This document shows positions 13,406-61,486 of a stretch of DNA of 64,000 bases, in pieces. The number at the start of each line of letters is the position of its first letter. The stretch's first letter is position 1. Origin of the DNA: a virus; the IMG/VR virus record IMGVR_UViG_3300032322_002570, positions 1-64,000 of that record. One strand, given 5' to 3'. A program made the position numbers and the translations under genes. Under the pieces are notes generated by a model that was given only the letters and a program-made list of their open reading frames with translations, did no database searches and had not been told where the DNA came from.

Positions 13406-13537
13406 CTGCACAAAATATGTGCTCCAGCACATTTGCTACCCCCTTTTAGGATGCTACCAAACCCCTTGCGCCGCAAGGGTTCTCATGCGCCAAAAGGGGG
13501 GTTTCAATGTGCAGCCGTTCTTAGTAGTATTCGGGAT
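13406..13537. repeat. Inverted repeat copy A (partner 61356-61486)
   Basis: 32/32 identity of CTGCACAAAATATGTGCTCCAGCACATTTGCT (13406-13437) to the reverse complement of 61455-61486; further matching blocks through GTTCTTAGTAGTATTC. Confidence 0.92.
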
Positions 13538-13835
13538 TGAAAGAATTGAGAAGAAGAAAGAAGTAACAGCCATAGATTGACTTAGATCTAAGAGTGTGTA
13601 GAAAGTGATCATTAGACCTACGTCTAATGATCACGTAAATACCCTTTCTCAATAACTAAAGAGTCATACTAGGGTAGATAGATAAGTCAACCTAATCAAT
13701 AATACCCTTAGGGTAGTACAGAGAATAATAGGTCTTCTTAAGAGTACCCTGAAGGTATTATATATATATCTACTATAGAGGGGCTGTTCCCTGGCTGTTG
13801 GGGCTGTTCCTTCCTTCTCTTTCAATTCCTACTAC
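13524..13835. other. AT-rich nested-palindrome tract, putative origin-like element
   Basis: ORF-free and AT-rich; perfect 13-bp arms GTGATCATTAGAC-CTAC-GTCTAATGATCAC (13605-13634); TACCCT/AGGGTA at 13640, 13671, 13703, 13710, 13745; outer imperfect arms 13524-13571 and 13802-13835. Confidence 0.55.
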
Positions 13836-14032
13836 ATAATCGACCCGCCGCCGAGCGGCGACGAGGCGCGTCTGATCGGTTGCTGCTGTGATGGACGCAG
13901 AAAACGAACCGGGAAGGTGCCTCGAGGGGGCGCGCTGTGGGATTCGATGTCCAAGGGCCTCCAGGGGCCTTCCAGGGGCTCCTGACAGCGTGCTTCCGAT
14001 GGTATGCTAAAAATGCCCCCTCGAGCGCCGCC

Positions 14033-14572
14033 ATGAAGGCCTACGCCGGGATTGGATCAAGGAAGACGCCGCCGGAGATCCTGGAGGTCATGACGCGGCT
14101 TGCGGCCAGGCTTGAGGCCGATGGTTGGGTGCTGCGCAGTGGTGGCGCCGAGGGCGCTGATGAGGCGTTTGAGCGAGGCGTGACGAACCCAAGCGCGAAG
14201 CAGATCTACTTGCCCTGGGATGGCTTCAGGGGCAGGAGGCTCGGCGGCTCATTCATGGCTGCACCACGGTGGGCTGATGCGACCGTAGATGTCTTCCACC
14301 CGGCGCCCGGCCGCCTGAGCCAGGTCGCTCGGCGGCTCATGGCCAGGAATGCGTGCCAGGTCCTTGGGCCGGACAGCCCACTGCTACCTGCAGGCAAAAG
14401 AGAGCCGTCTTCAAGCCTGGTTGTCTGCTGGACGACCCTTGACGGCAATGGTGCGCCAAATGGCGGCACTGGCCAAGCCATAAGAATAGCTAATCATTAC
14501 GACATCCCTGTCAGGAACCTCTTTTCCAAGGAGCACCTGGATGCCGCCCTTGACTTTATAGGCGACCGCTAA
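14033..14572 (+). CDS. SLOG/DprA-like nucleotide-binding protein
   Basis: YAGIGSRKTP...LRSGGAEGADEAFE...RNACQVLG...GGTGQAIRIA; ATG 14033. Confidence 0.8.
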   Translation: MKAYAGIGSRKTPPEILEVMTRLAARLEADGWVLRSGGAEGADEAFERGVTNPSAKQIYLPWDGFRGRRLGGSFMAAPRWADATVDVFHPAPGRLSQVARRLMARNACQVLGPDSPLLPAGKREPSSSLVVCWTTLDGNGAPNGGTGQAIRIANHYDIPVRNLFSKEHLDAALDFIGDR

Positions 14573-15246
14573 TTTTCAGTAAAACTTGCGTCCAGCGGAA
14601 ACCGCCAACATTGGTGCGCAGCGCTGCTCGTCATAATAGAGCTTGCCCCCAACGACAAGCCGGCCAACCCTGAAACCGAAGCCAAAACCGCCCCAGAACT
14701 CCTGGTCGGTGTTATCCCACCCAAGTGAAAATCCCAGGCGGTCGCTGGCTTCAGCCCTGAGATAGCCGCCACACTCATCGATCAGGCACAGGAACATCAG
14801 TCTTTCCGAATGAAAAACGCTTCAACTATAGCCTGCCCAGCGAAGTAGCCGGCGAACGTAAAGCAGACGATCGCTGGCGTCAGTCTGAACATCTCATCAA
14901 TGAGCCGTTCCACTCTTGCTCCGTTGATAGGTTTTTAGCGGCAGCCTGACTTGAGAGAAGCCCCGCTGCAGCCTCCCGGGGATTCCTTGGGCATGGCCAA
15001 CGATCACCTTGCCTTCGAACTCCTCCAGCACGATCCAGCCCGGAAGCCAGCCATAGCCCTCAAGGCTTGACAGGACCTCAACGATCGACCCAATCGGGAA
15101 TCGAGTCTCCCGCTCCAGGTCTCGATCCAGCGCCTCCAGTCGGTCGCCGCTGTACTCCTTGGTCTCCTTCCACGCCAGTGGATGTTCCGTTACCGTACGG
15201 TAGTAATCGAGCAGGCGCTGTCTTCTGTCCATGATTTCATCTGGGT

Positions 15247-48012: not shown

Positions 48013-49349
48013 TTGCCATGACTTTCTCACCTGAACTCAAGGCGTCTCTGGCGCCACTCCGCCCAAGTGACTTTAAGGTTATCATCTGCTTCTTTGCCTT
48101 TGGTGGCCGCGATTCGCACAATGAGTTAGTCCCACGTAGCGGGAACAATCTGAGCCGGTACAATGAAGCCCGCCCCGGTGGCTTGCGCATTGAGCAATCG
48201 GAACTGCTTTCTCTGAATGGAAATAGCGCATGGGGATTGCACCCAAATATGGGCTATTTCCGAGATCAGTGGAACGCAAACAGATTGGCTGTGCTGCGTC
48301 ATGTAGGCATCCTGAACGAACCCGCCACCAGGACGCAACTACGTGAACAGCCGAGCCGGTACGAACCGCAGTTTCTTGGAGCGCATGACGCGCAGTGGGA
48401 GCAGTGGCAGGACGGCCTGGAGTTTCGCTCAGTAGCTCGGACTACTGGCTGGATGGGGCGACTCGCTTCGCTCCTTGAGGGAGTCTGGAACGTGCCAACT
48501 GCAGCAGCAGACAACGATCTGATGCTGAGCTGTGTATCCATCGGTGGCCTCAGTCGGCAACAAAGGGCATTTCCGCCTGACGGCTCTGTAGCGCTGCCAG
48601 TGGAAGCCAGGCCCGGAGCATTTGGGTATGGCTCCAGCCAGGCAACTCGCCTGCGAGAGCTTTTCACCGAGGCCGAAGGTGCTGGGCTGCCTGCTGCTGT
48701 TGACGCCAACCGCATTAGGCAGGGCTGGAAGCGTCAGGCACAAAAAAACCTAGCGGCTCCTGGGTTTATTCAAGGCCAGCTTCGCGCATTGCCCCAAGCT
48801 GTATCTGATGCTCTGGCCCCTGCGCCGCAGCTCCGCCCGATAGCCCAGGCGATCTACACAGCCCAACAGAATCAGGCACTTGGCATCAGGCGACTAGTCG
48901 CTTTTGTGCCAATCGGCGGCTGGGATCACCATGCAAACCTGCGGCCTCAGCATGATCCGCTGATTCTCGGCCTCAACAATTCTATGGCAGCGATGGCAGC
49001 GGCCATCAACGCCATGGGGCTTACGAACAGCGCGGTGCTTTGCACACAGAGCGAATTTGGCCGCACATTCCGTGGCAACAGCAACGCAGGTACAGACCAC
49101 GCATGGGCGGGCCATCAGTTTGTGATGGGCGGGCCAGTCATTGGAGGCATGTATGGCCCTGAGCCGAATTACGCCCCTACCGGCGAACACGTTGCTGACG
49201 ACAGCGGCAACATTTTTATTCCGCAGATCAGCACGGATCAGTATTACGCTACGCTGCTGCGGTGGTTCGGCTTACCAGTGGATGCCATCAACGCTGTGCT
49301 GCCAGGGGCTTCGCGGTTTACACCCCAAACCCTGAACTTTGTGCCTTAG
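48009..49349 (+). CDS. DUF1501 family protein, no Tat signal
   Basis: FGGRDSHN, GLHP, GWMGR, GGWDHH, SEFGRT, GTDHAW, GGPVIGG, STDQYYATLLRWFG. Confidence 0.88.
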   Translation: MIAMTFSPELKASLAPLRPSDFKVIICFFAFGGRDSHNELVPRSGNNLSRYNEARPGGLRIEQSELLSLNGNSAWGLHPNMGYFRDQWNANRLAVLRHVGILNEPATRTQLREQPSRYEPQFLGAHDAQWEQWQDGLEFRSVARTTGWMGRLASLLEGVWNVPTAAADNDLMLSCVSIGGLSRQQRAFPPDGSVALPVEARPGAFGYGSSQATRLRELFTEAEGAGLPAAVDANRIRQGWKRQAQKNLAAPGFIQGQLRALPQAVSDALAPAPQLRPIAQAIYTAQQNQALGIRRLVAFVPIGGWDHHANLRPQHDPLILGLNNSMAAMAAAINAMGLTNSAVLCTQSEFGRTFRGNSNAGTDHAWAGHQFVMGGPVIGGMYGPEPNYAPTGEHVADDSGNIFIPQISTDQYYATLLRWFGLPVDAINAVLPGASRFTPQTLNFVP

Positions 49350-49503
49350 CGAACCGACGACCTGACCTGTCATGGTACGGCTGCGTCCGAGCCGCCTGCC
49401 AGCGGCTCCCAATAAAAGACCGGCACGCGCCCGTGACTCGGAATAATATAGTGATGGGGCCTAACCTCTACGAGGCACATCGTCGTTCTCCGCTACTACT
49501 CCA

Positions 49504-49896
49504 ATGACTGCTCGCTCTACTTATCCGATTCGCGAGGGCTTTCATCTCGACGCGAACTCCCAGATCACCACTCAAGCCAAGGACCTGGGCTACGACCTGG
49601 GCACCGTTGGCACCATCCGCCTGATCGTGCTCGACGCCACTGTGGTGGCCCCTACCGGCAATGGCACCGGAGCCAGTATCCAACTGCAGGATGCCGATGA
49701 TTCCAACGCGGTGTTCTTCACCATCACGCAGGCCGACCTGGCCAATGCTGATGCCAACGGCGTCTACATCGACCACCTCCGTGGCGCCAAATTTGATGGC
49801 ATCCGGAATGTGAGGATGGCCTATGTCGCTGGGTCCGCCGGTACCGGCACTGCTGGCGCCATCACCGGCTTCAGCGTCTACCTTGATCGCGTCTGA
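49504..49896 (+). CDS. Putative capsid decoration/virion protein
   Basis: 130-aa beta-rich protein with strongly biased codons, followed by a terminator. Confidence 0.45.
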   Translation: MTARSTYPIREGFHLDANSQITTQAKDLGYDLGTVGTIRLIVLDATVVAPTGNGTGASIQLQDADDSNAVFFTITQADLANADANGVYIDHLRGAKFDGIRNVRMAYVAGSAGTGTAGAITGFSVYLDRV

Positions 49897-49914
49897 TCGC
49901 TAAAGGCGCACACT

Positions 49915-49940
49915 GGCCCGCCTAAACAGCGGGCTTCTGT
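49915..49940 (+). terminator. Probable intrinsic terminator
   Basis: GGCCCGC-CTAAACA-GCGGGCT-TCTGT. Confidence 0.5.
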
Positions 49941-49974
49941 GTAGGTATACTACCCCAGAACATATCCAGTCGAC

Positions 49975-50583
49975 ATGCACATCTACGGCGCACCGGTCTA
50001 CTACCGTAAAGAACTCGAAGACGGCAGAGTCCTTCGCCGTCGGGTGTTCTACCTGCAGGAAGCATCAGAGCTGGAAGGCCTCGGTTGGGAGCGTGGGAAC
50101 AAGCCCAAAGAGGAAGAGAGCGATACCCAGACCGAGCCCCAAGAGCAGGAAGAGCCCGATCCCGCGCCCAGCCCCGAACCAGCCGCCGAAGAGGTACTGG
50201 TGCCAGGGGTTGAAGACGACACCTTTGAAGCCGACGAGCAGATCGAAGAAAAGCAGCCGACCGAACTCGAGTTCATGAGCAAGGCTGAGCTGATTGAATA
50301 CGGCCGGAAGATCGGTGCTCCGGTCAGCGCATCGATGAACAAGCAGGCAATCGTGGATACGCTGAAGAAAGCCGAACCGCGCTTCCTGTATCCCGATAAA
50401 TGGGCGCCGCCCAAGAAGGCAAAGCGCTTTGACCGCATCACCGCCCCAGACGGCTCCGAATGGATCTTCGATCAGCCGCGCCTCGAGGATGGTCGCTACG
50501 AGCACGACGATCCGACGACCCCTGAGTTCGAGTCTGCGCTGACCTGGATGCCGTTCGAGGAAGTCGATGGAAGTGACGTATAG
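49975..50583 (+). CDS. Acidic head-region protein with a Rho-N/HeH-like helix pair
   Basis: MSKAELIEYG...MNKQAIV; RLEDGRYEHDDPTTP motif. Confidence 0.5.
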   Translation: MHIYGAPVYYRKELEDGRVLRRRVFYLQEASELEGLGWERGNKPKEEESDTQTEPQEQEEPDPAPSPEPAAEEVLVPGVEDDTFEADEQIEEKQPTELEFMSKAELIEYGRKIGAPVSASMNKQAIVDTLKKAEPRFLYPDKWAPPKKAKRFDRITAPDGSEWIFDQPRLEDGRYEHDDPTTPEFESALTWMPFEEVDGSDV

Positions 50584-50778
50584 CCAAGGGCCCCGGATCC
50601 TGGATGACGGAACAAACCTGGACCGGGACATTCTGGCAAGCCACCCAAGGACCAGCAGACGTCAGATCTCTGATCCTGTCTCCGACGGGTCGCTTGGAGA
50701 GCCCGGCTACGAACCTGGGCAGAAGAATCTCGATGGTTCCCTTCTCTAGGGAACACTAAACGGTAAAGAGGACGCGCA

Positions 50779-51117
50779 GTGGCTGCCACCATTTCACACA
50801 AACGAGGTGATACGTTCGAGTGGTATCTTGAGCTACCAGCCGACGAGTACGAGGATGGGTACTTTGTGGGCTGGACAGTCGCATCGCAGATCCGCAACAC
50901 GAAAGGAAGGCTTGTAGCGGAACTTAGCACGTCCTGGGGTACCCCAGCGGAGAATACTCGAGTGCTTAGGCTGTTCGCCGCCGATACGGCCGGATGGCCG
51001 CTTGGTGACCACGAGGCAGATGTCCAGTTCACACGTGAATCCGACGGATTTATTAAGTCGACTGAAACGTTCATAGTCTCCGTCGGGAAGGACGTAACCA
51101 TTACCGAAAATGGCTGA
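50779..51117 (+). CDS. BppU-N-like baseplate/tail adaptor
   Basis: KRGDTF...GWTVASQIR...DVQFT...STETF. Confidence 0.6.
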   Translation: MAATISHKRGDTFEWYLELPADEYEDGYFVGWTVASQIRNTKGRLVAELSTSWGTPAENTRVLRLFAADTAGWPLGDHEADVQFTRESDGFIKSTETFIVSVGKDVTITENG

Positions 51118-51341
51118 CAATCCAATACCGATTCGATTTGTCTCGTCAGGGCAGCCGATTCCGATCGAGATAAGCCCGTCAAGTGGAACCATCGAGCCAA
51201 CTGCGGCGATGACAAGCGCGGTTAAAGGGGAGAGAGGGGACCCTGGCATACATATCGGGCCAGAGCCACCCGAGAACACCTCCATCCTGTGGCTTGATAC
51301 TGGATCAACATAGACAAGTTGCCTCTGTAGCCAGGGTGAGC

Positions 51342-51351
51342 GGAATACTAA
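51342..51351 (+). promoter_or_regulatory. Putative phage-sigma late promoter GGAATACTAA (representative)
   Basis: GGWANACTA also at 42856, 49944, 50750, 54744 and 55643 (+) and at 26833 and 31797 (-). Confidence 0.6.
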
Positions 51352-51382
51352 GAAGGCACCCGGCTTTGCTGCATCCTGACAC

Positions 51383-51802
51383 ATGGCTTCCCATCTACAG
51401 AACAACTTCATCGCTGACCTGGCGGCCGGCAACCTGATTCCCGGAACTCACGAGTTCAGGATGACACTGCACACGTCGGCATACACGCCAAACAAGGACC
51501 ATAATCGGTTCGACGATGTGACCAACCAGGTAGCCAATGGCAACGGTTACACCACTGGCGGTGAAATTGTCACAATGACAATCACCACTGATAACGCCAA
51601 CGACCGAACCAGTATCAGCTTCTCTGAGCCTAGCTGGGCTTCGGCAAGCTTTACTGCTCGCTACGGCGTGGTGCGCAGGGCCAGGGGTGGCGCCGCGTCT
51701 GCCGACGAATTGATTGCGACGCTGGACTTCGGTCAAGATGTTACCGCAACCAATGGAACTTTTGCTACGGATGAGACTGCGCCATTCTACATCAATAACT
51801 GA
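51383..51802 (+). CDS. Phage tail/virion protein
   Basis: LHTSAYTP...NGNGYTTGG...LDFGQD. Confidence 0.65.
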   Translation: MASHLQNNFIADLAAGNLIPGTHEFRMTLHTSAYTPNKDHNRFDDVTNQVANGNGYTTGGEIVTMTITTDNANDRTSISFSEPSWASASFTARYGVVRRARGGAASADELIATLDFGQDVTATNGTFATDETAPFYINN

Positions 51803-51804
51803 TA

Positions 51805-52632
51805 ATGGCGATCACAACCTTTGATCAGTACATCGGGGCCTACAAACAGCACATCCAGCTCGCCAAAACCAACACCGTGACGACGGTTGCGGGCCGGGAG
51901 TCTACACTGATTGACCGTGCCGGCTTTCCGGCTGCCGGGTCGTTGTCGCCGTCGCAGACAACCAACGGCGTTGTGCCAACTGATGCAACGACCGGGTTCC
52001 CCGCGATCCAGACGTTCCAGGGCAGCAACAAAGGTTATCTGAGCCGGGTGGAGGCTTACAGCAATGTGGCCTGCACACTGTTCCTGTTTGATCTGCTGTT
52101 CTGGGCTGGCGGCACGGTGATTCCCACGACGGGAACCACGACTGTCACCCTGTCGTCGCAGCCAGACTTTTCGGGCAGGCTGCCGCTTGATGGCGGTGGT
52201 GTCAACCCAGCATGGAATGAAACGGAGCTGTGGCTGCAGTCCAACGTTGCCTGGTCCAACCATGCTCACACGGCATCAGTTGACTACACCGATCAGGACA
52301 ACAATGCTGGAGCCAATACGGGCAACATCAGCACGCAGAACCGCGTTATCAACTCCATGATGCGGATGCCGTGGGCTTCTGGTGACTACGGCACCCGCAT
52401 GCTGGAAGGCTACAAGCTGAACGGCATTTCTTCTGCAGCGGGTCAAGTCACGGCAATGGTGCTGCGCCGGATTTGGGCAGGAAGGCTGCAGGCGAACCAG
52501 TACATGGTATTTGGCCCTGATCTGACCGGGATGCCGCAGGTATTCGATACCTCTGCATTGTTTGTCGCCTGCAACACTGATTCAACCACGTCACCTACAC
52601 CGACCCTGATCCTGGAGATCGCGGAGGGGTAA
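51805..52632 (+). CDS. Virion structural protein
   Basis: MAITT N-terminus; LFDLL...; located in the tail gene block. Confidence 0.55.
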   Translation: MAITTFDQYIGAYKQHIQLAKTNTVTTVAGRESTLIDRAGFPAAGSLSPSQTTNGVVPTDATTGFPAIQTFQGSNKGYLSRVEAYSNVACTLFLFDLLFWAGGTVIPTTGTTTVTLSSQPDFSGRLPLDGGGVNPAWNETELWLQSNVAWSNHAHTASVDYTDQDNNAGANTGNISTQNRVINSMMRMPWASGDYGTRMLEGYKLNGISSAAGQVTAMVLRRIWAGRLQANQYMVFGPDLTGMPQVFDTSALFVACNTDSTTSPTPTLILEIAEG

Positions 52633-52635
52633 GCC

Positions 52636-54732
52636 ATGGCCCTACGGGCGCGGCGTGGCATCCTCACCCGATCCAATCGGCGCAACTTTGCTGCGACCAC
52701 TGCGCCGGTTCGCCCTGGCGCCTGGAGTGATGTAGCTGAATCGCTGTTTGGGCGCATTGATGCGCTTGACGGCAGCGTAGTTGCGCAGTATTCCGGTGCT
52801 ACGGCCTCCACGACCGTCGGAAGCGTGAGTGCGGCCGGGGCCGGTACGGCGGGGTATTCAGTCGCATCCTCATCGACAACGCAAGGCCAATGGACAGCCA
52901 GTAGTGCTGTCAATGCCACTGGAGATTATGTCGGTGGCACCGCAGCAACGACGGCGTCCTCTTGGGCGGCCTTGGCCAGCGCAACAGCAGCCCACGCCGG
53001 GCCAGGCACTAGCGTTGCTGCGGCCATCAACGCGGCGACTGGCACCGCATCCGCGAGCTGGACTAGCGCGGCGACGGCAACAACGGCGGCAGGATGGACC
53101 GGATCGGCATCGGCCTCCGGCGACTATCTGGGCCCTGGTACAACGACGGCGCATGGTACTCACGCCGCTACGGGCGCGGCGACGGCAGGCCACATAGGTT
53201 CCGTCAACACCACGACGGCCGGCTCTTACTTGGGAGACGGAGCGGCCACTGCTCGGTACGACGGCTCCCAGGGCGAAGCGGTCGGCGGAACGTGGTCCGT
53301 CATCTTAAGCGGTACTGGCGGATACGAGGGCGCGAGCAATGCGGCAACCGCTGCATCTAACACAGCTACTGGCACTGCGGGTTCGCAACATACTGGCTCG
53401 ACATGCGAAACCGCACCAGGGACTAACACAGCAAGCGGCGGCGCTATCGCTGACTACACTGGCGCGGTTGTCGAAACGACGACAGGAACATACGCAGCCG
53501 CTGGTGGAACAGGGAACACTGGCGTCTATTCAGGCGGGGACACGGCGGCTCAGGATGCAGTATGGGAAGCCAGCGCTACTGCCGTCGGAAGCCACGGGGG
53601 TACATCAAGCAATACATCGAGCTGCGAATACGAGGCCAACGGCTCTGCGCTGGCAGTCTGCACAGGAGTAGCAGGTGGAACAGAGCAGGCCGAGTGGGTC
53701 ACGCGTGGCGATTGCCTGTCGGCGTGGGGCGGGGAGTCGGGTGCAATCACCGTCGGCGAATGGGTCGCCAATGGTGGTACTGGCTCCACGGGTGAATACG
53801 GAGGCACTGCTGGCACGGTAGTCGCCGGCTCCACGCAGGCATCCGGATCCGCATTGGCGCCGAGCCCTGGCAGCGAAGCCGACACTGGCAGTGGCGCATG
53901 GCAGGCCTCTGTATCGGTCTCAGCGGCATACCTGCCAATCGATTTGAACGTCAATGCCGCAGAGTGGAATAGCGCAGGGGCTGGGATAGCTGAGTACAGC
54001 GCTACTGGAGATGCCAGTGTCGCCCAAGCGAGTTGGACTGCTGGCGTGTCCTCCAACGCTGGATACGCGGGCGGGAGTACCACAACTTCGAGCGGCACGT
54101 GGAGCGTTGCCGGCGGCGCGTCGTCGTCCTTCAGTGGCACAGAGGCAGATACCACTCAGGCTAATTGGACGGCCGTGTCCACGAGTAACGGTCTTGGCGA
54201 ATACGTCGGCCCAGGAACTGCTGCATCAGCAGGGCAATGGTCGGCCATAGGAGGGGCGACGTCTAGTTCTGCCGGCTCGGAGACGACACCGATCGCGGCG
54301 GTATGGGGAGGGGCCGGAAGCGCTGCGCCGTCGTGGGCAGGGGATCAGGCTGCAATAGTCGGCGGCCAATACGCGGGACGGGTGCATCAACTAGCGATAT
54401 GGACTGGCTACCAGTCTTCGCCGGGAAGCGCCGCGTGGGCGGCTCACGGCAGTGCAGTCGCTACTCACAGTGGTGCAAACAGGTCGACCGAGTATGCCGT
54501 ATGGATTGCGGAATGCGATGCCATCGCAGCATTCGGTGGTGATACAGCCCTCGTGTGGCCGGCAGAATGGGTCTCGACGGCGACAGGTAGCACAATACTG
54601 TACTGGTACGACAGTAATCTGGACGAATGGAGGCCGGGATCTCTGATGAGATGGAGTACGGCGAGGGGCGCGTGGGAGAACGCCGAATGTCGCGCATTCT
54701 CTGGTGGTGAGTGGCGTTCTGTTAGCGGCTGA
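52636..54732 (+). CDS. Ala/Gly/Thr/Ser-rich fibre protein with ~22-aa repeats
   Basis: Units such as YLGPGTTTAHGTHAATGAATAG / HIGSVNTTTAGSYLGDGAATAR / YDGSQGEAVGGTWSVILSGTGG. Confidence 0.7.
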   Translation: MALRARRGILTRSNRRNFAATTAPVRPGAWSDVAESLFGRIDALDGSVVAQYSGATASTTVGSVSAAGAGTAGYSVASSSTTQGQWTASSAVNATGDYVGGTAATTASSWAALASATAAHAGPGTSVAAAINAATGTASASWTSAATATTAAGWTGSASASGDYLGPGTTTAHGTHAATGAATAGHIGSVNTTTAGSYLGDGAATARYDGSQGEAVGGTWSVILSGTGGYEGASNAATAASNTATGTAGSQHTGSTCETAPGTNTASGGAIADYTGAVVETTTGTYAAAGGTGNTGVYSGGDTAAQDAVWEASATAVGSHGGTSSNTSSCEYEANGSALAVCTGVAGGTEQAEWVTRGDCLSAWGGESGAITVGEWVANGGTGSTGEYGGTAGTVVAGSTQASGSALAPSPGSEADTGSGAWQASVSVSAAYLPIDLNVNAAEWNSAGAGIAEYSATGDASVAQASWTAGVSSNAGYAGGSTTTSSGTWSVAGGASSSFSGTEADTTQANWTAVSTSNGLGEYVGPGTAASAGQWSAIGGATSSSAGSETTPIAAVWGGAGSAAPSWAGDQAAIVGGQYAGRVHQLAIWTGYQSSPGSAAWAAHGSAVATHSGANRSTEYAVWIAECDAIAAFGGDTALVWPAEWVSTATGSTILYWYDSNLDEWRPGSLMRWSTARGAWENAECRAFSGGEWRSVSG

Positions 54733-54769
54733 ACTCGGTAAAAGGAATACTATGTAAAACACTCCGTCA

Positions 54770-55075
54770 ATGCCACAGAAAAAGAAGCGCTCCACCGCAA
54801 GCTTCTACGCCAACAACCCTGAGGCGTACAAGAAGAAGCTCGCCTACGACAAGAAGCGCAACGCCAGGCCGGATCGCAAGGAGTATCGGGCGGAACTTGC
54901 TGCTGAAAGGCGGGCGCGTGGGTTGATGGGCAAGTCGGGCCCCGATGTCAGCCACACCAAAGGCGGTGGCTTCAAACTCGAGGATCCATCAAAGAACAGG
55001 GCTCGAAACGGGCATGGCGACAACGGCCGGCTGGCGTCAGGTAAAGGCACCCGCAAGTCCAAGCCCAGGAAGTAA
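54770..55075 (+). CDS. Small basic protein with minimal HNH-like motif
   Basis: DVSHTKGG...EDPSKNRARNG. Confidence 0.55.
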   Translation: MPQKKKRSTASFYANNPEAYKKKLAYDKKRNARPDRKEYRAELAAERRARGLMGKSGPDVSHTKGGGFKLEDPSKNRARNGHGDNGRLASGKGTRKSKPRK

Positions 55076-55597
55076 TCAGCACTCCCTGACTGGCGCGAAC
55101 TCGCCGAAGAAGCGTAGCTCCGCGCAGCGCCTCGCGGCGATGGCTTCGTCGACGGAGGAGAAACTGCCAATATATTCCTCCCTGCCATTCTTCTTGATTC
55201 TCACCCGCCACTTTCCGTGGTACAGCCTGATACCAGTGAAGCCGGAGGAGTTATTGCTCTGCAAGTTTACCCTGTTCCTATTGTTCTCCGCGTGACTAGC
55301 CAGTCTAAGGTTCTCCGGCCTATTGTCCCATGGCTTGCCATTGACGTGATCGATCTCTAGACTGCCAGGGTTCCCGCCGTTGTATAGCGCCCAGACGATA
55401 CGATGGTTTTGATATAGCCTGAATTGAAAGCGGACCTGCCAATAGCCATCCTTTCGAAGGGTCCCGGCAGGGTCGCCCGGCCTCATCTTACCCCTCGCTA
55501 CCGCATAGACCAGGCCGCTCGGGCCCTCGCTGTCCACGCGAAAGGTCTCGCCGAGGATTCTTAGTAGCTCTCCCTCCAGTGGCATCGCGTCTCTCAT
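55076..55597 (-). CDS. HNH-AP2 homing endonuclease
   Basis: HRIVW...IDHVNG..DNRPENLRLASHAENNRN; AP2 domain NSSGFTG...YIGSFSSVDEAIAAR. Confidence 0.88.
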   Translation of the reverse strand: MRDAMPLEGELLRILGETFRVDSEGPSGLVYAVARGKMRPGDPAGTLRKDGYWQVRFQFRLYQNHRIVWALYNGGNPGSLEIDHVNGKPWDNRPENLRLASHAENNRNRVNLQSNNSSGFTGIRLYHGKWRVRIKKNGREEYIGSFSSVDEAIAARRCAELRFFGEFAPVREC

Positions 55598-55673
55598 CCT
55601 GTTCGCGCCAAGGGGTACAAGCCTATCTTACCACACTGATGCGGAAGACTAAGGAGTCCCCGCCAGGCCAGGC

Positions 55674-55973
55674 ATGGAGCATCCGTTCGCCGGGATGGTC
55701 ATCAGGTTTGTCTTGGTGGTCTATACCGTGACTATCGCAACCTCGGTGTACGACGTAGTGCGTTGTAGCGCAACTGCATCTAACGCATGTATTGCAGAAC
55801 GTGCTGCGCTGATTGAGGTGTCGAACCAGGTGCCGATGGTGCTATTCGCCTGGCTGGCTGATTCGCCGCTGAGCGGTAGAGGATCAGAAAAGAAACCGAC
55901 CGAGAGGAAGGTGCCGGTACCCAGAAAAAAGCAGGACGACGACCCCCGAAACAATCCGGAGCCGATGGGATGA
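55674..55973 (+). CDS. Membrane protein, possible holin
   Basis: Two hydrophobic segments and a charged C-tail; upstream of the endolysin. Confidence 0.4.
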   Translation: MEHPFAGMVIRFVLVVYTVTIATSVYDVVRCSATASNACIAERAALIEVSNQVPMVLFAWLADSPLSGRGSEKKPTERKVPVPRKKQDDDPRNNPEPMG

Positions 55974-56277
55974 TGATCATGCCTTCCAAGTTTTTCAGGC
56001 TTACGACTTTTTCGCGTCCGGCGAAAAAGCTTGTGCGGAAAATCAGCGGACTGCTTCAGTCGGAGGAAGCAGCACTTAGACCATACCTGCCTGGCATCTT
56101 TCAGTACATCGATCGCTCGATGCCAGGCATGCTGACTAATGCCGACGGCTATGAAGTCTACGAGCTCATTGCTCGCGGCATTCAGCGCGAAACCGGTCGC
56201 CGCGCAAAAGCGTCAGAGGTGCGAATCGTCACAAGACTGTACGACCCAATCGTCGCCGCCGCAAAGGTGTTCATCCA

Positions 56278-56694
56278 ATGAGCGAGGGACTGACCAGGGA
56301 AGAGGTATCCAGGATTGACGCGGCCGACCTGTACCACAGATTGGGCAAGCTCGAGGGCCTGATTGAGCTCAACAGCAAGACTCACCTGGCAACGCAGGAG
56401 CAGCTCCAGGTGCTCGCGAGCGCACTGTCGACCCTGCAGGCAAAGCAATCAAGCCTAGAGGCAGCAATGGACTCCAACCGCGCGGTATCGAGCGCCGGCT
56501 ACGAAGGCCTGAAATCGATAGTCATTCCAATCGCGGCGATCATCGTCACATACATCGTCGCTCGCGGCACAACGCCGCCATGCCAAAACCACAGCAATCC
56601 AAGGATTGCTCCCACACTACCCAGGGTGACTCCAATTGTTGACTGGAGACCAAGTAGCGGAACTTGCCCTGAAGTACGGCGCAAGATGGCCTGA
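56278..56694 (+). CDS. Coiled-coil plus TM protein, possible lysis accessory
   Basis: Coiled coil followed by IVIPIAAIIVTYIV; adjacent to the endolysin. Confidence 0.45.
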   Translation: MSEGLTREEVSRIDAADLYHRLGKLEGLIELNSKTHLATQEQLQVLASALSTLQAKQSSLEAAMDSNRAVSSAGYEGLKSIVIPIAAIIVTYIVARGTTPPCQNHSNPRIAPTLPRVTPIVDWRPSSGTCPEVRRKMA

Positions 56695-57709
56695 GCTCGT
56701 AAGGGCCCAGTGGCAGGTCGAGTCCGGTGGGGGCAAGTATCTTGCTGCGCGAAACAATCTGTTTGGGCTCAAGAGTTCAACAGGAACTCCTGCGGAAACA
56801 ACCGAGTACGAGAACGGCGTTCCGATTACAATCACAGACAATTTCAAGGAATTCGAGTCGCAGGAAGAGTGCATACGCTACCTGGTTGAAAAGTGGTATA
56901 AGGACTACAAGGGGTATAAGGGCGTTAATAATGCGGCAAGTGCAGAAGATGCAGCGAGGATGCTCCAGTCGGAAGGATATGCTACGGACCCAGACTATGC
57001 CAGCAAGCTGATCAAGGCAATGCCCGCTGCACAAACTCGCGCAAGCCTATACAATGCCGTCCTGCACTTTGAAGGACTGCCGCATCAGATTGACGCGCTC
57101 AAAAAGCTTGACGCTTCGCTGACACCGCAACAAGCCGAGGAATTCACCAGGAATTGGCGCAAGCAGGTCAGACCAAAGTTTCCGCTGGCGGTGCCTTACT
57201 TCTACCAGTCAGACAGCAAGACGGGACAGGGCCAGCGGATGTGTCAGGCCAGCGCTATTGCATCCAGGGTGAAACGCATTGCTCCGGATATAATCAAGGA
57301 CGACGACGACTATCTCAAGGTTGTCAATCGCTTCGGCGACACCGTGTCTCAGCAGGCGCACCAGGCGGCGCTTGCACATCTTGGGCTGAAGGCTGAATTC
57401 AGGACCAATGGCAGTGAAAAGCTTCTACTGAGCCTGCTGGACGATCTTGTAGACGTGCCCATCGGCGTACTGCACAAGGGGCATGTTTCCAATCCTGTCG
57501 GCGGCGGGCATTGGATCGACGTGATTGGCTACGACTCTAAGTACTTCCACGTGCATGATCCATTCGGCGAGATGGACGTCGTGAATGGCGGTTATGTGAA
57601 GACAGGGCCAACTGACGGGAAGAACCAGCGCTACACGCGCAAGAACCTGTTGAAGCGCTGGTTGATCAGTTCAAATTCGGATGGCTGGTTGTGGATCATT
57701 CGCAAGTAA
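56636..57709 (+). CDS. Endolysin: GH73 glucosaminidase + C39-like peptidase
   Basis: AQWQVESG..NNLFGLK..GYATDPDY; VPYFYQ..RMC..GGGHW...VHDPFG. Confidence 0.88.
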   Translation: MLTGDQVAELALKYGARWPELVRAQWQVESGGGKYLAARNNLFGLKSSTGTPAETTEYENGVPITITDNFKEFESQEECIRYLVEKWYKDYKGYKGVNNAASAEDAARMLQSEGYATDPDYASKLIKAMPAAQTRASLYNAVLHFEGLPHQIDALKKLDASLTPQQAEEFTRNWRKQVRPKFPLAVPYFYQSDSKTGQGQRMCQASAIASRVKRIAPDIIKDDDDYLKVVNRFGDTVSQQAHQAALAHLGLKAEFRTNGSEKLLLSLLDDLVDVPIGVLHKGHVSNPVGGGHWIDVIGYDSKYFHVHDPFGEMDVVNGGYVKTGPTDGKNQRYTRKNLLKRWLISSNSDGWLWIIRK

Positions 57710-58348
57710 TCCTGTGGTTTCTGCCTGGGTACATGTTTGACGGCCATAGGATCGTCAGCACTGGCGTAGCGCTGCCCGCGACTCAGCATATCAATCCCAA
57801 GACTGGACGCCTCATGTACTACGTCCGCCCTTTGTTCGAAGGTGGCGCCGGAGTCGGACTCTACGTCAGCCACGACGGTCTGGTGAAGGCCCTGGGCGGC
57901 TATACGGACGCCTCTTCGCCGCCGGACTCCTCATCCTCACCAGCGTCATAGGACAGACCTGGGATGCTCTCCACGACGCCGCGTAGGTAGGCGTGCACCC
58001 GGGCCGGCTCCCAGCCGTGCTGGTTTACCAGGACCATCCCGATCTGGTTCAGGGCCACCGTGTGGCCGACCGTCCAGAGGCGACGCTGGATGGCGTCGTC
58101 CCTGATAACGGAGGCCTGCTGGATCACGCCGAGTTCCGACAGGTCTTGGCTCTGCTCGGCAAGCAATCGCGAGTGTTCAGCCCTCTCTCGATCCAGGGCG
58201 AACATCAGCCACTTGGCAAACGCCTGGATGCCAGCAATTAGCGCACCGAAGAAGAGTGACGTGACTGCAGAGACCGCGCGATGCAGCATGATCAGCAGCA
58301 GGATCAACGACCCAAAGATCGATCCGACGGCCCTGAACAGAAAAGCTC

Positions 58349-60133
58349 TCAATTCAACAGCCTCCTGGCCTTCACAACGGCGGGATGATTGATGGTATCG
58401 TCGCCCTTGAGGGTGCACGTGTTGTAGTCGATCTGGATGATCGAACGGTCCACGCTTCCGCCTCTGACGGGTCTCATGGTAGGGTTCCCGCTGGCGTCGC
58501 TACCCCAGATTATCTGGCCCTCCCTGACCTTATCGTGCCAGATTTCTATCATGTTTTCGGACGGTTCTCCGCCCTGTACTGGGCGCTTCCTGCACAGCCA
58601 GACGCAGTGCGCATTATGCGCAAGCACGTCGGTGCCTCTGATCTGTGACTGCGTTGGTGGCGGTGGCTCTTGTCCTTTTGCCCAGTACGTGGCATCATCC
58701 AGCTTTTCCCTATTCATTTGGCAGGTCAGGATCAGGTCGACGGCTAATTCTTTGCAGACAGCGTCCAGGATCTCGGCGCGCTCTGACAGCATCGCCGTCT
58801 CGTCCCTCGGGGCGCCCTTGTGTCGCTTGATCGCATGGAAGTGGTCGATGACGACCACACGCAGCTCTGGACGACGTGCCTTGATCACCCTGATCGACTG
58901 TGCTATGGCATGTGCGCACGGCTTCTGAGGCGCCTCCGTCAGAAGCCGGCCACCGGACGCCTTCATCTCTTCAGCCATCGCCATGAGTACCCTCTCGAGG
59001 CCGGGCTTCGGCAGCAGCCTGTGGTAGATCAGTTCGGTTGCATCCACGTAGCCAATACCGTCAGAAGCGTTGGACCAGTGGACGCCGGAAACTCCAACCG
59101 TCTTCCTGACCAGCGATGCAAACAGGCGTGCCTCCGTCGCCTCTCTTTCGAGCTCGGCGGAGATGAAGGCGACCGTCGCGCCACCAAGGACGATCGATGT
59201 GGCAGCGTGCGAGGCCAGGGCCGTCTTGCCGACTGCGGGCCTAGCAGCCAGCAGCAGCATGCGATACTTGTGCTGCGCAGGGCCGTGCGGCATGACGCCT
59301 CCACCGCAGTCCAGGTCCATCGCGTAGACGCCAGTAGAGATGGGGCGCTGGGGTTTACGTTCTTTCATAATCGAATCGATCCAGTTATCGGCACCGTCGA
59401 CCGGTTGGCCGACGATGGAGTCGATCGCGTCAACGAAGCGACCTTGGGAGCCGATCGTGCCGCGAACAATCCCAAGGCACTCGGTTGAACGGTGCTGTAG
59501 AAACTCCAGCGCGTCCTCAAGTTTGGACTCGGCGCGAATGTTTTGCTTGGCGACGTGCAGCGTATCCAGGTACAGGGCCCTGACGCGAAAGCGCTTCAGC
59601 ACGTCGAGCGCGGTGTCCCACTCGGTGTCCGGGTCGCCATAGGACTCCATCAGGGATGGGTCTGCCAGTTCGTGGATGGCCTGGCTGAAGTCCGTGACAG
59701 GGACGATCCTGGAGGCCTCCTGGCGCATCGTGTACGCCACCGCCAGGGAGTCTCTGGAGATCACGCTGGTGTCCGACTGGCCGATGAAGACCATGTCTAT
59801 CTCGTGGGCGATGGCTCTAAATCTTGCGTCGCTCCACAGGACGGGCGGTACTGACTGGTCGAGCATCACGCCGAAGGCGGATCTAAGGGCAGCCCAGAGC
59901 TCACGGGCACGCGCCGAGGAGGACGCCAAGACGCGGGACAGGACGATCGCCTCCTGCGGCGTCGTGTCTTCGCGCTCCTGGACGCTGCTGGGTTGTAGCT
60001 TGTCGACAATCCTGGCAACCTCCATCGCCGACAGGTGGCCGCCGTCGGAGGTTGATCTCAGGCCGTGTTCCGTCTGCTCCAGCAGCCCAAGCTCGATAGC
60101 CTTCTGGATGTAGTACGGAAGTTCTTCACTCAT
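58349..60133 (-). CDS. DnaB-like replicative helicase
   Basis: ARPAVGKT, FISAE, VVVIDH, CQMNR, IRGT. Confidence 0.88.
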   Translation of the reverse strand: MSEELPYYIQKAIELGLLEQTEHGLRSTSDGGHLSAMEVARIVDKLQPSSVQEREDTTPQEAIVLSRVLASSSARARELWAALRSAFGVMLDQSVPPVLWSDARFRAIAHEIDMVFIGQSDTSVISRDSLAVAYTMRQEASRIVPVTDFSQAIHELADPSLMESYGDPDTEWDTALDVLKRFRVRALYLDTLHVAKQNIRAESKLEDALEFLQHRSTECLGIVRGTIGSQGRFVDAIDSIVGQPVDGADNWIDSIMKERKPQRPISTGVYAMDLDCGGGVMPHGPAQHKYRMLLLAARPAVGKTALASHAATSIVLGGATVAFISAELEREATEARLFASLVRKTVGVSGVHWSNASDGIGYVDATELIYHRLLPKPGLERVLMAMAEEMKASGGRLLTEAPQKPCAHAIAQSIRVIKARRPELRVVVIDHFHAIKRHKGAPRDETAMLSERAEILDAVCKELAVDLILTCQMNREKLDDATYWAKGQEPPPPTQSQIRGTDVLAHNAHCVWLCRKRPVQGGEPSENMIEIWHDKVREGQIIWGSDASGNPTMRPVRGGSVDRSIIQIDYNTCTLKGDDTINHPAVVKARRLLN

Positions 60134-61098
60134 CGCGCTCGTCCTCTTGCGTTGTCGTCGTCGTAGGCGGGAGCCGGAGGGTCAACTTCCGGGTTCAGCG
60201 TCGGGTCGGGCCAGGCACAGTTGGGGACCTGTGGGAAGCGGCGCCGGAGGCGTTGGGGGTCGAACCCGGCGTCCAGCACGGCCTGGCAAGCGTTGACGAC
60301 GCGAAGCTTGTGGCCCTGTCTCACGGCACCGAGGTCGAACGCCTGAGCATAGGCGAACTGGGCTGCGATGTACTCACTGATCACGGGGCGCAGGTGGCCA
60401 GGGTAGACCGTGTGCTTCAGCCTTGGGGCGGCACGCTCTGGCTTCGAGCCCGAGGCGGCGCCCTTCTCGTACAGGCTCAAGACGTTGGCCCGCTTGCGGT
60501 CGGTCGGACGGTTCAGGCCTGTGATCGACGCCAGGGTCTTGTTGCTGTTCTGCTCAAGCCAGAACTCGGACGACTCGACGCCAACCGCTATCCCCTGGAA
60601 GAAACGCTCGTAGTCGTAGGGCTCCAGCCCAAGGTCGCTCATGTGACTGTTCACCGCTTTCGCCAGGCTATCCGGCACGACCCGGAGGCTCGAGTAGCCC
60701 AGGGGCTTCAGGCGGTTCCAGGCATCAGCAAGCTCCGCCTTCGGGTCCCTTCCGGAGGTCAGCAGTGGCGCCGACACAGCCAGGCTGCTCTCGAGGTTGA
60801 ACCGCAGGAACTTAGCGGCCCTGGTGAGCGGCTGGAGCTCGATCCTGGTGGCGGAGATCATCCTGACCAGCCCCAGGTCTCTCAGGTCGCGCATGGCGGC
60901 CTGGCGTGAGTTCCGGTGCAGCCCAACCAGGGCGTCAAGCTCGGCGCCGCCATGAAGCTCGTCGGTCCCCAGCAGGATCAGCGAGATCAGTAGGAGCTTC
61001 GGGACAGGCCTGAGGTCCGGGCAGTAGGCGACCAGGCGCATGATCGCGTTGTCCGGTTCGTGGTGCCAGTCGACGGCGCGACAGACGCTGAAGGGCAT
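60130..61098 (-). CDS. Putative replication initiator (N-terminal winged HTH)
   Basis: KLLLISL...ELDALVGLHRNSRQAAMRDLRDLGLV; coupled to the helicase; next to the AT-rich tract; start ATG 61098 lies downstream of the promoter motif at 61119. Confidence 0.55.
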   Translation of the reverse strand: MPFSVCRAVDWHHEPDNAIMRLVAYCPDLRPVPKLLLISLILLGTDELHGGAELDALVGLHRNSRQAAMRDLRDLGLVRMISATRIELQPLTRAAKFLRFNLESSLAVSAPLLTSGRDPKAELADAWNRLKPLGYSSLRVVPDSLAKAVNSHMSDLGLEPYDYERFFQGIAVGVESSEFWLEQNSNKTLASITGLNRPTDRKRANVLSLYEKGAASGSKPERAAPRLKHTVYPGHLRPVISEYIAAQFAYAQAFDLGAVRQGHKLRVVNACQAVLDAGFDPQRLRRRFPQVPNCAWPDPTLNPEVDPPAPAYDDDNARGRAR

Positions 61099-61217
61099 GG
61101 GGGCTCGGCGAGGACTGAACCATAGCACCTAAACGCACCCTGGCGGTCGGCGGGTCGTCAGTGGGACGGTTTACAGGGTGTCTGCCGGGTCGTCAGAAAG
61201 AGGGGTGTGTCTTGGGA

Positions 61218-61370
61218 CATTAAGAATGTATTCGGGAGAACTACTACCTAGAAGAACTACTACCCTTAGATAACCTATAAGGGAACTATACACTTTTAGA
61301 CAATAATACCCTATAACGCAGTAATATACTCTTCTTATCTTCTAATGTTTCTTATATCCTGAATACTACT
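61218..61370. other. AT-rich putative replication origin
   Basis: AGAACTACTACC twice; TACCCT; CAATAATACCCT (61301) shared with 13697; flanked by GTATTCGGGA/TCCTGAATAC; upstream of initiator-helicase. Confidence 0.55.
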
Positions 61371-61486
61371 AAGAACAACTGCACTTATGAAACCCTCGAA
61401 AAACGCATCAGAACCATTGCGCCGCAATGGGTTTACCCAGGTCGAAAAAGGGTCAGCAAATGTGCTGGAGCACATATTTTGTGCAG
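61356..61486. repeat. Inverted repeat copy B (partner 13406-13537)
   Basis: Reverse complement aligns end to end with 13406-13537. Confidence 0.92.

Follow-up and report, generated by a model that had tools for sequence, protein, structure and literature searches.

Two inverted copies of a compact intergenic element of ~200 bp, found in the genome of a Synechococcus-type siphophage (a 74-kb cyanophage, IMG/VR record IMGVR_UViG_3300032322_002570), appear to be a duplicated divergent early promoter-operator cassette that acts at the DNA level and possibly also forms a pair of origins resembling oriL and oriR of phage SPP1. This is the explanation towards which we lean, and its parts carry different weights: we are confident that the cassette is a DNA-level cis-acting platform, its promoters probably fire in both directions, and origin function at one or more copies is a possibility of not quite even chance. 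The record comprises 73,855 bp (59% GC, ~92% complete), and its positions 1 to 64,000 constitute the window, that is, the whole 64,000-nucleotide stretch analysed. A first-pass annotation of the window had proposed a selected, duplicated protein-binding platform; this reading is partly supported, namely by the conserved blocks, the retained dyad symmetry, the position of iteron arrays in relatives and a DnaD-like neighbour, which together suggest a DNA-level platform, but it missed the promoter aspect.

A BLAST search within the whole 73,855-bp record aligned 13403-13537 (plus strand) with 61356-61489 (minus strand) at 78% identity (E 1.1e-23), in agreement with the annotation of 13406-13537 and 61356-61486 as diverged reverse complements. 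These two copies, A and B, are the only ones, and the pair is the sole dispersed repeat of the genome. A repeat search resolved it into two inverted segments, 13459-13537/61356-61434 (79 nt, 76%) and 13403-13447/61445-61489 (45 nt, 91%). The match of ~131 bp described initially is real, but the similarity is longer, running from about 13349 to 13567 in A and from 61543 to 61325 in B: it extends outward through CCAAAC.GTATAGCG..GAACA (13349-13371/61523-61543) and inward ~40 bp beyond GTTCTTAGTAGTATTC. Every conserved block is found only at A and B within the genome. The copies are 48 kb apart, or ~25.9 kb across the record ends.

Each cassette is laid out as an outward -10-like box TATAC[A/C], a 30-bp spacer of fixed length, a 32-bp block, a palindrome (pal2) and an inward TTTCA[A/T]-17 bp-TAGTAT. 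The outward edge block of copy A (CGCTATACAGTTTGG core, 13349-13371, minus strand) is kept in both copies and occurs nowhere else in the genome; its TATACA (13355-13360) would belong to an outward promoter directed towards the gene at 12833-13294. The perfect 32-bp block (13406-13437, identical to 61455-61486 in copy B) contains, besides the dyad that had been annotated there (pal1, ATGTGCT-CC-AGCACAT, 16 bp, 13417-13432), an overlapping 15-bp 5-N5-5 palindrome, GCACA-AAATA-TGTGC (13408-13422). Then come pal2, CCCTTGCG-C-CGCAAGGG (13463-13479, 17 bp, with a TTGC...GCAA core), and the inward edge (13502-13537, plus strand), where the -35-like TTTCAA, the half-site TGTGCAG (13508-13514) and the perfect 16-mer GTTCTTAGTAGTATTC (13517-13532), with a -10-like TAGTAT (13525-13530), mark a presumed inward promoter. 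Copy B repeats this arrangement on the opposite strand, with an outward edge block (CGCTATACCGTTTGG core, 61523-61543, plus strand) whose TATACC (61532-61537) precedes the ATG at 61556 by 19 nt, the 32-bp block (5-N5-5 palindrome 61470-61484, dyad 61460-61475), pal2 as CCATTGCG-C-CGCAATGG (61414-61430), and an inward edge (61356-61391, minus strand) with TTTCAT, GTGCAG (61379-61384) and the same 16-mer (61361-61376, TAGTAT 61363-61368). Both copies carry palindromic operator-like sites between promoter-like boxes, with sequence and spacing retained. Each has a single GCACA-AAATA-TGTGC, a single pal2 and two or three half-sites, and pal1 is centred 76.5 bp from the presumed outward start in A and B alike. 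Both perfect 5-N5-5 palindromes of each copy fall within the element. The proposed boxes lie below the thresholds of a consensus scan, which called none in copy B and other sites in copy A; TATAC-type boxes are also found 5' of the initiator gene in the cyanophages S-CRES3 and S-CBS2.

Conservation between the copies is strongly non-uniform. Outside the perfect blocks they differ at 34% of positions, while the 32-mer and the 16-mer are retained and the diverged spacer keeps its length; the earlier description of diverged spacers and conserved blocks holds, and chance is a poor explanation for 32 consecutive identities (p = 0.003 for the core, 5e-5 for all 253 alignment columns). The 5-N5-5 palindrome, pal1 and pal2 are perfect in both copies. 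In pal2 this symmetry has survived a two-sided change (C/G in A, A/T in B), as had been noted, and at 34% divergence only ~0.24% of neutral simulations leave a 17-bp palindrome intact. Alternatively, the element could lack any function and be either the decaying remains of an accidental duplication or a sequence homogenised through gene conversion. The existence of two copies only would agree with this, and recent conversion could in principle have produced the identical tracts; the uneven conservation, the dyad symmetry kept against such a background, the spacing kept in the diverged part and the placement of both copies precisely between divergent operons make this very improbable.

The two-sided change had been called compensatory. 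The change itself is there, but it says little about base pairing, because templated quasipalindrome correction, a known mutational mechanism, yields the same pattern, and it is the only such change between the copies. The two copies might nevertheless encode a structured small RNA or leader with nested hairpins (P1-P4): shuffled sequences fold less well than copy A on both strands (z about -3.5), the pairing of pal2 survives, and ATTTTG follows pal1 on the outward strand in the manner of a terminator. Against this, copy B folds no better than shuffles (z -1.2 and -1.7, not significant); the 9-bp stem CCCCCTTTT/AAAAGGGGG of copy A keeps 2 of its 9 pairs in B; the retained dyads are all perfect Watson-Crick palindromes, with no G-U pairs and no strand asymmetry; a search of the element against Rfam gave no match even at E <= 1; and transcription presumably starts outside the element. 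We regard an RNA as quite improbable, and the pattern of substitution makes us confident that the block-wise constraint acts on the DNA.

Both copies lie at strand-divergence points, as first annotated, and each fills the gap between two divergent operons, the conserved unit spanning exactly this gap, from one presumed transcription start to the other, with -10-like boxes at both edges. Copy B stands directly upstream of the initiator and helicase genes, again as annotated. The nearer of these (60130-61098, minus strand) encodes a 322-aa winged-helix protein and overlaps the start of the gene for a DnaB-like replicative helicase (58349-60133, minus strand; phrog_19, E 4.7e-22; DnaB_C, E 1.4e-16), which is 43-55% identical to the helicases of S-CRES3 and of the IMG/VR relatives G001 and G002. 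The 322-aa protein belongs to a small family (37 representatives), 10-11 of 27 members of which match HTH_Crp_2 or HTH_36. Its AlphaFold2 model (mean pLDDT 89) has an N-terminal domain that superposes on primosomal DnaB 5wtn_A (Z 10.5, rmsd 2.2 A over 90 residues), and its syntenic counterpart in S-CRES3 is annotated 'DNA replication protein'; the model suggests a DnaD-like winged-helix replication organiser and candidate initiator. Outward of copy B run a poorly conserved small gene (61556-61807, plus strand, 83 aa) and the genes for an exonuclease (61835-62560), for an annealing protein of Sak-like type (64757-65473) and for a sigma-70 family protein (65601-66467). The inward unit of copy A is a single gene for a DprA-like recombination mediator (13937-14572, plus strand; phrog_768, E 2.6e-50), and its outward unit is a minus-strand run of mostly small genes that begins with 12833-13294 and extends to position 1 and past the record end.

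We propose that each cassette would be a start point from which host RNA polymerase transcribes early genes both inward and outward. Copy B would serve the initiator and helicase on its inward side and the exonuclease, annealing protein and sigma factor on its outward side; copy A would serve the DprA-like gene on its inward side and, outward, about 15-17 kb of genes that are mostly small. The palindromes would then be occupied by dimeric DNA-binding proteins of the phage, which would co-regulate all four units; the candidate regulators are the winged-helix initiator or early gene products, the prime one being the DnaD-like protein encoded beside copy B. A similar design is known from phage lambda, in which two inverted promoter-operator copies (OL/PL and OR/PR) drive early operons of opposite direction, dimeric regulators bind to palindromic operators, and transcription from one module activates the nearby origin. 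The likeness lies in the twin inverted modules with (here predicted) palindromic operators. Lambda, however, has triplicated 17-bp operators flanking the repressor gene, 2.4 kb apart, whereas the present copies are separated by 48 kb (or 26 kb), each cassette would work in both directions and no repressor was identified.

The same syntenic position, where an early outward operon diverges from initiator and helicase genes, exists in S-CBS2, S-CRES1, S-CRES3 and the IMG/VR relatives G001-G003, L007 and L009. In L007 the outward genes are an exonuclease and a small gene; elsewhere they comprise small genes, an annealing protein and sigma. Where the array could be read, in six related phages, this position holds 3-8 palindromic iterons, and two further relatives have similar word repeats there. 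The iterons read TACCCA-N5-TGGGTA in S-CRES3, TGYCCA-N5-TGGRCA in S-CBS2, GTGGACA-CCT-TGTCCAC in S-CRES1 and GTTGC-AAAAT-GCAAC in G001 (seven copies, mostly at 22-bp spacing; likewise in G002 and G003). As in these phages, the sites described here are 15-17 bp long, with 5-6-bp arms and a 3-5-bp spacer, and adjoin an AT-rich run. The palindrome of the 32-bp block has the arm and spacer geometry of the iterons of G001, G003 and L049, with GCACA arms in place of the clade's GTTGC, and pal2 has a TTGC core and a spacer 2 bp shorter. Further, the TCTTAGTAGT block of the inward edge has a counterpart at the corresponding place in G001 and G002; the G002 version, TCTTAGTAT, directly precedes the first iteron. 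The relatives, however, have several copies of one iteron, mostly with ~22-bp phasing, and each copy described here has two palindromes that differ in kind. The array is apparently replaced by a compact two-palindrome cassette in this lineage.

G001-G003, the closest complete relatives, carry one such site each, as does S-CBS2, so the duplication is lineage-specific. Their genes are co-directional from the single control region; relative to them, a ~46-kb block is inverted here, with end points at about 70 kb and 42.85 kb, and the DprA-like gene is flipped relative to its neighbours in comparison with G001. Copy A has the inverted small-gene block on one side and the re-flipped DprA gene on the other, which by synteny is the place where the inverted early genes would need a promoter, and the cassette appears to have been copied to this second locus after the large inversion. 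A second iteron-plus-AT-run site is also present in S-CRES3 (29.7 kb) and S-CRES1 (31.5 kb), 26-28 kb from the first, the same scale as the A-B distance across the record ends. These second sites are direct repeats in non-coding gaps of ~800-900 bp after a terminator, whereas the copy described here has the inverse orientation and would form a divergent promoter region of its own; they appear to be independent of the A/B duplication.

The inverted repeats had also been proposed as recombination sites that flip the 48-kb segment and generate genome isomers. Their orientation and 32-45 bp of near-perfect identity (with the identical 32-bp core) would suit this, the phage encodes a RecE-like exonuclease, a Sak-like annealing protein and a RusA-like resolvase, the genome differs from its relatives by a large inversion, and a flip within the block would keep all four operons linked to promoters. 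We consider it extremely unlikely: no serine or tyrosine recombinase gene (PF00239 and PF00589) was matched in the 73,855-bp, ~92%-complete record, with control profiles matching in 12/14 and 14/14 genomes; the end points of the inversion are not at A or B; and a divergence of 22% between the copies argues against frequent exchange. Nor did the proposal of packaging sites find support, because TerL is 21 kb away.

Both copies adjoin AT-rich tracts, the genome's two lowest-GC spots. Tract A (13538-13835, 37% GC), a candidate DNA-unwinding element or long leader, is enriched in TACCCT/AGGGTA words and contains a palindrome with 13-bp arms (13605-13634) and a TATATATATAT run. Tract B (61200-61355, 35% GC) contains GGTAGTAGTTCT twice (61237-61264), is followed by the GC-rich direct repeats CTGACGACCCGSC (61149-61161 and 61184-61196), and lies where relatives carry iteron arrays. 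Their annotated adjacency to the copies holds, but the sequence said to be shared, CAATAATACCCT (13697-13708 and 61301-61312, both plus strand), is marginal (27/500 shuffles), and the tracts as a whole are not significantly alike (80/500 shuffles score as well). Inward transcription would enter these tracts, and an initiator bound beside them could open the DNA for helicase loading, in which case one or both cassettes would be origins of the SPP1 type and the second possibly a fork barrier formed by bound initiator.

In SPP1, two origins are bound by one protein, gp38, with resolvase, exonuclease and annealing protein as helpers that switch the mode of replication at the second site (PMC6316719), and oriR is proposed to be a programmed fork barrier leading to recombination-dependent synthesis of concatemers. 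As in SPP1, two separated sites share a repeat module, each with a candidate AT-rich unwinding region, one site adjoins the candidate initiator gene, with the gene for a DnaB-family helicase beside it, and the three helper functions are encoded. The SPP1 sites, however, are direct repeats, one of them inside gene 38, whereas here each site has two different single palindromes, recognised from sequence, within a divergent promoter region, and no helicase loader was identified.

The cassettes might be nothing but such an origin pair, the palindromes being initiator sites, the AT tracts unwinding elements and the promoter-like boxes incidental or needed for origin activation only. Besides the SPP1 precedent, the adjoining initiator and helicase genes, the position of the relatives' arrays, the two sites of S-CRES1 and S-CRES3 and the low GC of the tracts speak for this. 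We nonetheless find it unlikely. Although an AT-rich stretch adjoins each copy, as expected of an iteron-type origin, neither copy contains several phased copies of one repeat, since each has a single full 15-bp palindrome of the family geometry compared with 3-8 iterons in relatives. Moreover, a single site suffices in G001-G003, the conserved unit goes no further than the borders of the divergent genes, copy A stands exactly where the inverted early block would require a promoter, and conservation between copies does not include the AT tracts. GC skew showed no origin signal in the genome. Of the two opposed origins first suggested, two origins could exist, given S-CRES1, S-CRES3 and SPP1, but their opposition is not conserved, the S-CRES sites being direct repeats. 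A bolder version, in our opinion improbable, would fuse promoter, operator and origin in a portable module of ~200 bp, one copy starting theta replication and the other acting as a programmed fork barrier that switches to recombination-dependent concatemers; because the copies are inverted, the RecE/Sak/RusA-type machinery would flip the 48-kb segment and give two genome isomers in virions.

The promoter-operator cassette is most likely a lineage-specific twist on known phage designs and not a new kind of element. Our literature search found no paper on how transcription or replication is started in S-CBS2-like cyanosiphophages. The comparison locates the likely control region for this whole group, the iteron array upstream of the DnaD-like initiator gene, and a second such site in some lineages. 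Its value is that of a useful annotation and a neat evolutionary case, with no new principle. The sites that it supplies can be tested: two palindromes of 15-17 bp, the four presumed starts of transcription and the two AT tracts. They offer a way into early gene control, the choice of origin and genome rearrangement in a group of phages that is abundant in the environment but poorly studied.

We compared the two copies of the inverted non-coding element, copy A (13.4 kb, plus strand) and copy B (61.4 kb, minus strand), within the whole 73,855-bp IMG/VR contig, which is rated ~92% complete and of which the window covers bases 1-64000. A repeat search recovered two inverted pairs, I1 (13459-13537 / 61356-61434, 79 nt, 76%) and I2 (13403-13447 / 61445-61489, 45 nt, 91%), and whole-record BLAST aligned the copies at 78% identity (E 1.1e-23), confirming that they are diverged reverse complements. 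The perfect 32-mer, its dyad ATGTGCT-CC-AGCACAT (pal1) and the two versions of a second, 17-bp palindrome (pal2, 13463-13479 / 61414-61430) match the first-pass annotation exactly. The pair is the sole dispersed repeat found by self-BLAST of the genome, with no third copy in the whole record and neither a third copy nor an iteron array in its last 10 kb. In pairwise alignment the similarity runs outward to a block CCAAAC.GTATAGCG..GAACA and inward for ~40 bp past the perfect 16-mer GTTCTTAGTAGTATTC, so the duplicated unit is larger than originally drawn, at about 13349-13567 and 61543-61325. Conservation along it is strongly uneven: 32 consecutive identities have p = 0.003 for the core and 5e-5 for the whole alignment, a 17-bp palindrome like pal2 stayed perfect in only ~0.24% of simulations at the non-block divergence of 34%, and the 30-bp spacer that separates the 32-mer from the outward block is constant in length and diverged in sequence. 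A neutral remnant is therefore disfavoured, since constraint is block-wise; together with the retained dyad symmetry, this sustains the earlier idea of a selected, duplicated platform. The conserved blocks are all unique to the two sites within the genome and therefore do not represent a generic recurring promoter motif. A small ORF spanning the element was ruled out, because its length is not conserved (10 aa in A, 50 aa in B). These comparisons indicate that the twin element is a real, selected and duplicated cis-acting DNA platform.

The covariation evidence comes from two sequences, copies A and B. Dyads in register in both are an outer CTGCAC/GTGCAG pair (6/7), GCACA-AAATA-TGTGC (5/5), the overlapping ATGTGC/GCACAT (6/6) and pal2 (7/7, including one two-sided change). 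A structured RNA could explain why both strands of copy A fold better than shuffled versions (z about -3.5), but the longest stem of copy A (CCCCCTTTT/AAAAGGGGG) is lost in copy B, which retains 2 of the 9 pairs and folds no better than shuffles (z -1.2 and -1.7), and the element has no match in Rfam, whether gathering thresholds are applied or hits are admitted up to E = 1; this explanation is disfavoured. The retained dyads suit DNA-level sites better than a single conserved RNA fold, because every one of them is a perfect Watson-Crick palindrome without strand asymmetry. The single symmetric change in pal2 is real but is weak proof of base pairing, because quasipalindromes are known to mutate by templated correction, which yields an identical change.

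Genes at 1-13294 (minus strand) run outward from copy A, whose sole inward gene is DprA-like (13937-14572, plus strand). Beyond it, 14897-42852 is mostly on the minus strand and includes the portal, primase and TerL genes, and 42887-57951 is on the plus strand. Inward from copy B lie the genes for a 322-aa candidate initiator, below called the initiator (60130-61098), and a DnaB-like helicase (58349-60133); outward lie a small gene (61556-61807), an exonuclease gene, and genes for a Sak-like annealing protein (64757-65473) and a sigma-70 family protein (65601-66467). Between the primase and TerL genes, a 214-aa ORF (33862-34506) gave a weak second match to sigma-70 region 2 (17 bits, below cut-off). 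Beyond the window, a 573-aa ORF (genome 67586-69307; 3586-5307 of locus L041) matches dCTP deaminase along its entire length and has an HNH-endonuclease-like insert (residues ~274-405), perhaps an intein-like element or a homing endonuclease that has inserted into a gene of nucleotide metabolism.

At its limits the conserved unit has an outward-facing -10-like box, TATAC[A/C] (13355-13360, minus strand, in A; 61532-61537, plus strand, 19 nt 5' of the start codon at 61556, in B), and an inward-facing TTTCA[A/T]-17-TAGTAT pair (TAGTAT at 13525-13530, plus strand, and 61363-61368, minus strand), with the palindromes between them; thus it would span from presumed start to presumed start. The proposed boxes are weak, and none was called by a consensus scan. 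Each copy is probably a bidirectional early promoter-operator cassette, present twice, which would place four early units under one shared control logic. A reading as transposon ends was dropped, since the repeats sit in putative promoter regions and not at segment ends, as was a packaging site, since no link from the element to the terminase genes emerged (TerL at 34508-36049).

The AT-rich non-coding tracts inward of the copies (tract A, 13538-13835; tract B, 61200-61355), already described as conspicuous, are the two lowest-GC spots of the genome. The 12-mer CAATAATACCCT that they were said to share is present in both, but its statistics are marginal and the similarity between the tracts is not significant; CAATAATACCCT and TACCCT words were for these reasons dropped as iterons. 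Tract A has a near-perfect 30-bp palindrome (13605-13634, 13-bp arms GTGATCATTAGAC...GTCTAATGATCAC) with no counterpart in tract B. Beside the inward genes are GC-rich direct repeats, CTGACGACCCGSC twice, 35 bp apart, at copy B (61149-61196) and GGGGCTGTTCC twice (GGCTGTT three times) at copy A (13780-13815); they are mutually unrelated and could be candidate sites for a site-specific regulator or initiator. GC skew across the genome tracks gene strand only, and was dropped as an indicator of the origin. The cassette could plausibly double as an origin, given that inward transcription would run into the AT tracts and that copy B lies next to the initiator gene. We infer both roles; the sites per copy are too few for a classical iteron origin.

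By its helicase, the phage falls among the S-CBS2-like cyanosiphophages (identity 43% to S-CRES3, 41% to S-CRES1 and S-CRES2, 37% to S-CBS2), and a family-alignment search found closer IMG/VR relatives, G001 (55%), G002 (54%) and G003 (49%). An exact 25-mer of the element core was absent from the viral contigs searched, and scans of viral contigs with single proteins (the 332-aa protein, the initiator homologue P0002 and the helicase) returned no relatives, near-identical records apparently having been left out of these scans. Neither blastn of the region against GenBank phages nor tblastn of the 332-aa protein against phages gave a match, and a metagenome scan found relatives at 32% identity only. 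DprA-like relatives among viral contigs were unrelated AT-rich phages without the element, and were set aside.

In all relatives a 160-450-bp gap lies between the initiator and helicase genes and a divergent early operon, whose first genes in the related locus L007 are a small one and one for an exonuclease, and which comprises small genes, an annealing protein and a sigma factor in the S-CRES phages, S-CBS2 and G001. Within this gap lies an array of palindromic iterons: TACCCA-N5-TGGGTA in S-CRES3 (3 copies), TGYCCA-N5-TGGRCA in S-CBS2 (4 copies), GTGGACA-CCT-TGTCCAC in S-CRES1 (6 copies) and GTTGC-AAAAT-GCAAC in G001 (7 perfect copies, mostly at 22-bp spacing), with variants of the last in G002 and G003, and TGCAGC and TGCAAC words in L007 and the related L009. 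Here, both perfect 5-N5-5 palindromes of each copy sit within the twin element. GCACA-AAATA-TGTGC has the family geometry, with a spacer identical to that of the iteron of another related locus, L049; pal2 shares the family TTGC...GCAA core, with a spacer shorter by 2 bp. The block TCTTAGTAGT within the 16-mer is also present in G001 and, as TCTTAGTAT, lies immediately 5' of the first iteron in G002, as would be expected of an autoregulated initiator promoter. An AT-rich island of G001 (17.5-18 kb) was rejected as an origin, being low-GC coding sequence. A ~40-nt hairpin, GATCGTGAGC...GTTCACGATC, recurs between small genes at ~300-bp intervals in G002 (17 copies, ~48.8-53.9 kb, L062) and G003 (10 copies, ~0.28-4.7 kb, L055), each with a -10-like box upstream. 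This genome lacks these hairpins, which are unrelated to the twin cassette and are candidates for processing sites or for leader hairpins close to promoters.

A single iteron cluster was found in G001 and G003 (both rated complete), G002 and S-CBS2. S-CRES3 has a second one of four iterons and an AT run (~29.7 kb) and S-CRES1 one of eight and an AT run (~31.5 kb), both following a terminator in ~800-900-bp non-coding gaps, 26-28 kb from the first site and in the same orientation. Copies A and B would be ~25.9 kb apart across the record ends, provided that the genome is circular or permuted. Under the first-pass criterion for refutation, that relatives carry one copy only, the closest relatives available argue against an ancient twin design. 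Second sites in S-CRES1, S-CRES3 and this genome show that a second initiator-type platform arose more than once in the group, and the inverted orientation is not common to it. The second site of S-CRES1, with its eight iterons and AT run (OQ587939.1, 31417-31787; 1118-1488 of L040), is overlapped by two small ORFs annotated as gp59 and gp60, which are probably not real genes.

The family of the initiator is small, with 37 representatives among 1.8 billion proteins. Its N-terminus matches Crp-like HTH or HTH_36 domains in 10-11 of 27 members, and weakly matches the CAP DNA-binding domain. Confidence in the AlphaFold2 model is high (mean pLDDT 89). Foldseek by itself gave a weak match (E 0.02), and the N-terminal domain superposes on a winged-helix domain, that of primosomal protein DnaB (5wtn_A), with Z 10.5 and rmsd 2.2 A over 90 residues; the next match has Z 7.5, and DnaD, RctB and a plasmid initiator come lower in the list. 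This winged-helix match points to a DnaD-like replication organiser, which would be translationally coupled to the helicase. Its close homologues include P0002 (67%) and P0003 (52%). Across the clade, the helix presumed to read DNA is conserved (HR-x-[ST]-R ... EL[RK]xLG). As the three positions following this motif differ in the subgroup of this genome, a changed DNA specificity is plausible.

Protein mapping showed that in G001-G003 the head genes, DprA-like gene and small genes are co-directional after the sigma operon, from a single control region. Relative to them, a ~46-kb block holding head and packaging genes, primase and small early-type genes is inverted here; it takes in window 1-42852 and genome 70400-73855, continuing across the record ends from ~70.4 kb to 42.85 kb. 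The DprA-like gene, flipped back, alone retains the relatives' orientation, and copy A sits exactly between it and the inverted small genes; copy A would thus provide upstream control DNA to genes deprived of theirs. The inversion end points, ~70 kb and a 35-bp divergence point that the inversion created at 42.85 kb (42853-42886) and that bears the palindromic box GGTATACTAG, coincide with neither copy, and the repeats therefore did not mediate the rearrangement. The first-pass annotation had also proposed recombination sites inverting the 48-kb segment. Such site-specific inversion is disfavoured, since no serine or tyrosine recombinase gene was found in the ~92%-complete record; the phage's own recombination proteins might occasionally flip the segment by homologous exchange.

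Genes for a RecE-like exonuclease, a RusA-like resolvase and a Sak-like annealing protein are present (window 41128-42629, genome 64757-65473), which together make up a complete set of recombination tools, as would suit recombination-dependent replication. This recalls SPP1, whose oriL and oriR have common repeats and an AT-rich unwinding element and are both bound by gp38; gp38 at oriR is proposed to stall forks and switch replication to the concatemeric mode, employing a resolvase, an exonuclease, an annealing protein and SSB (PMC6316719). Judged from sequence, the description that fits the twin element best is a lineage-specific variant of the control/origin region beside the initiator gene in S-CBS2-like cyanosiphophages, apparently copied to a second locus following genome inversion.
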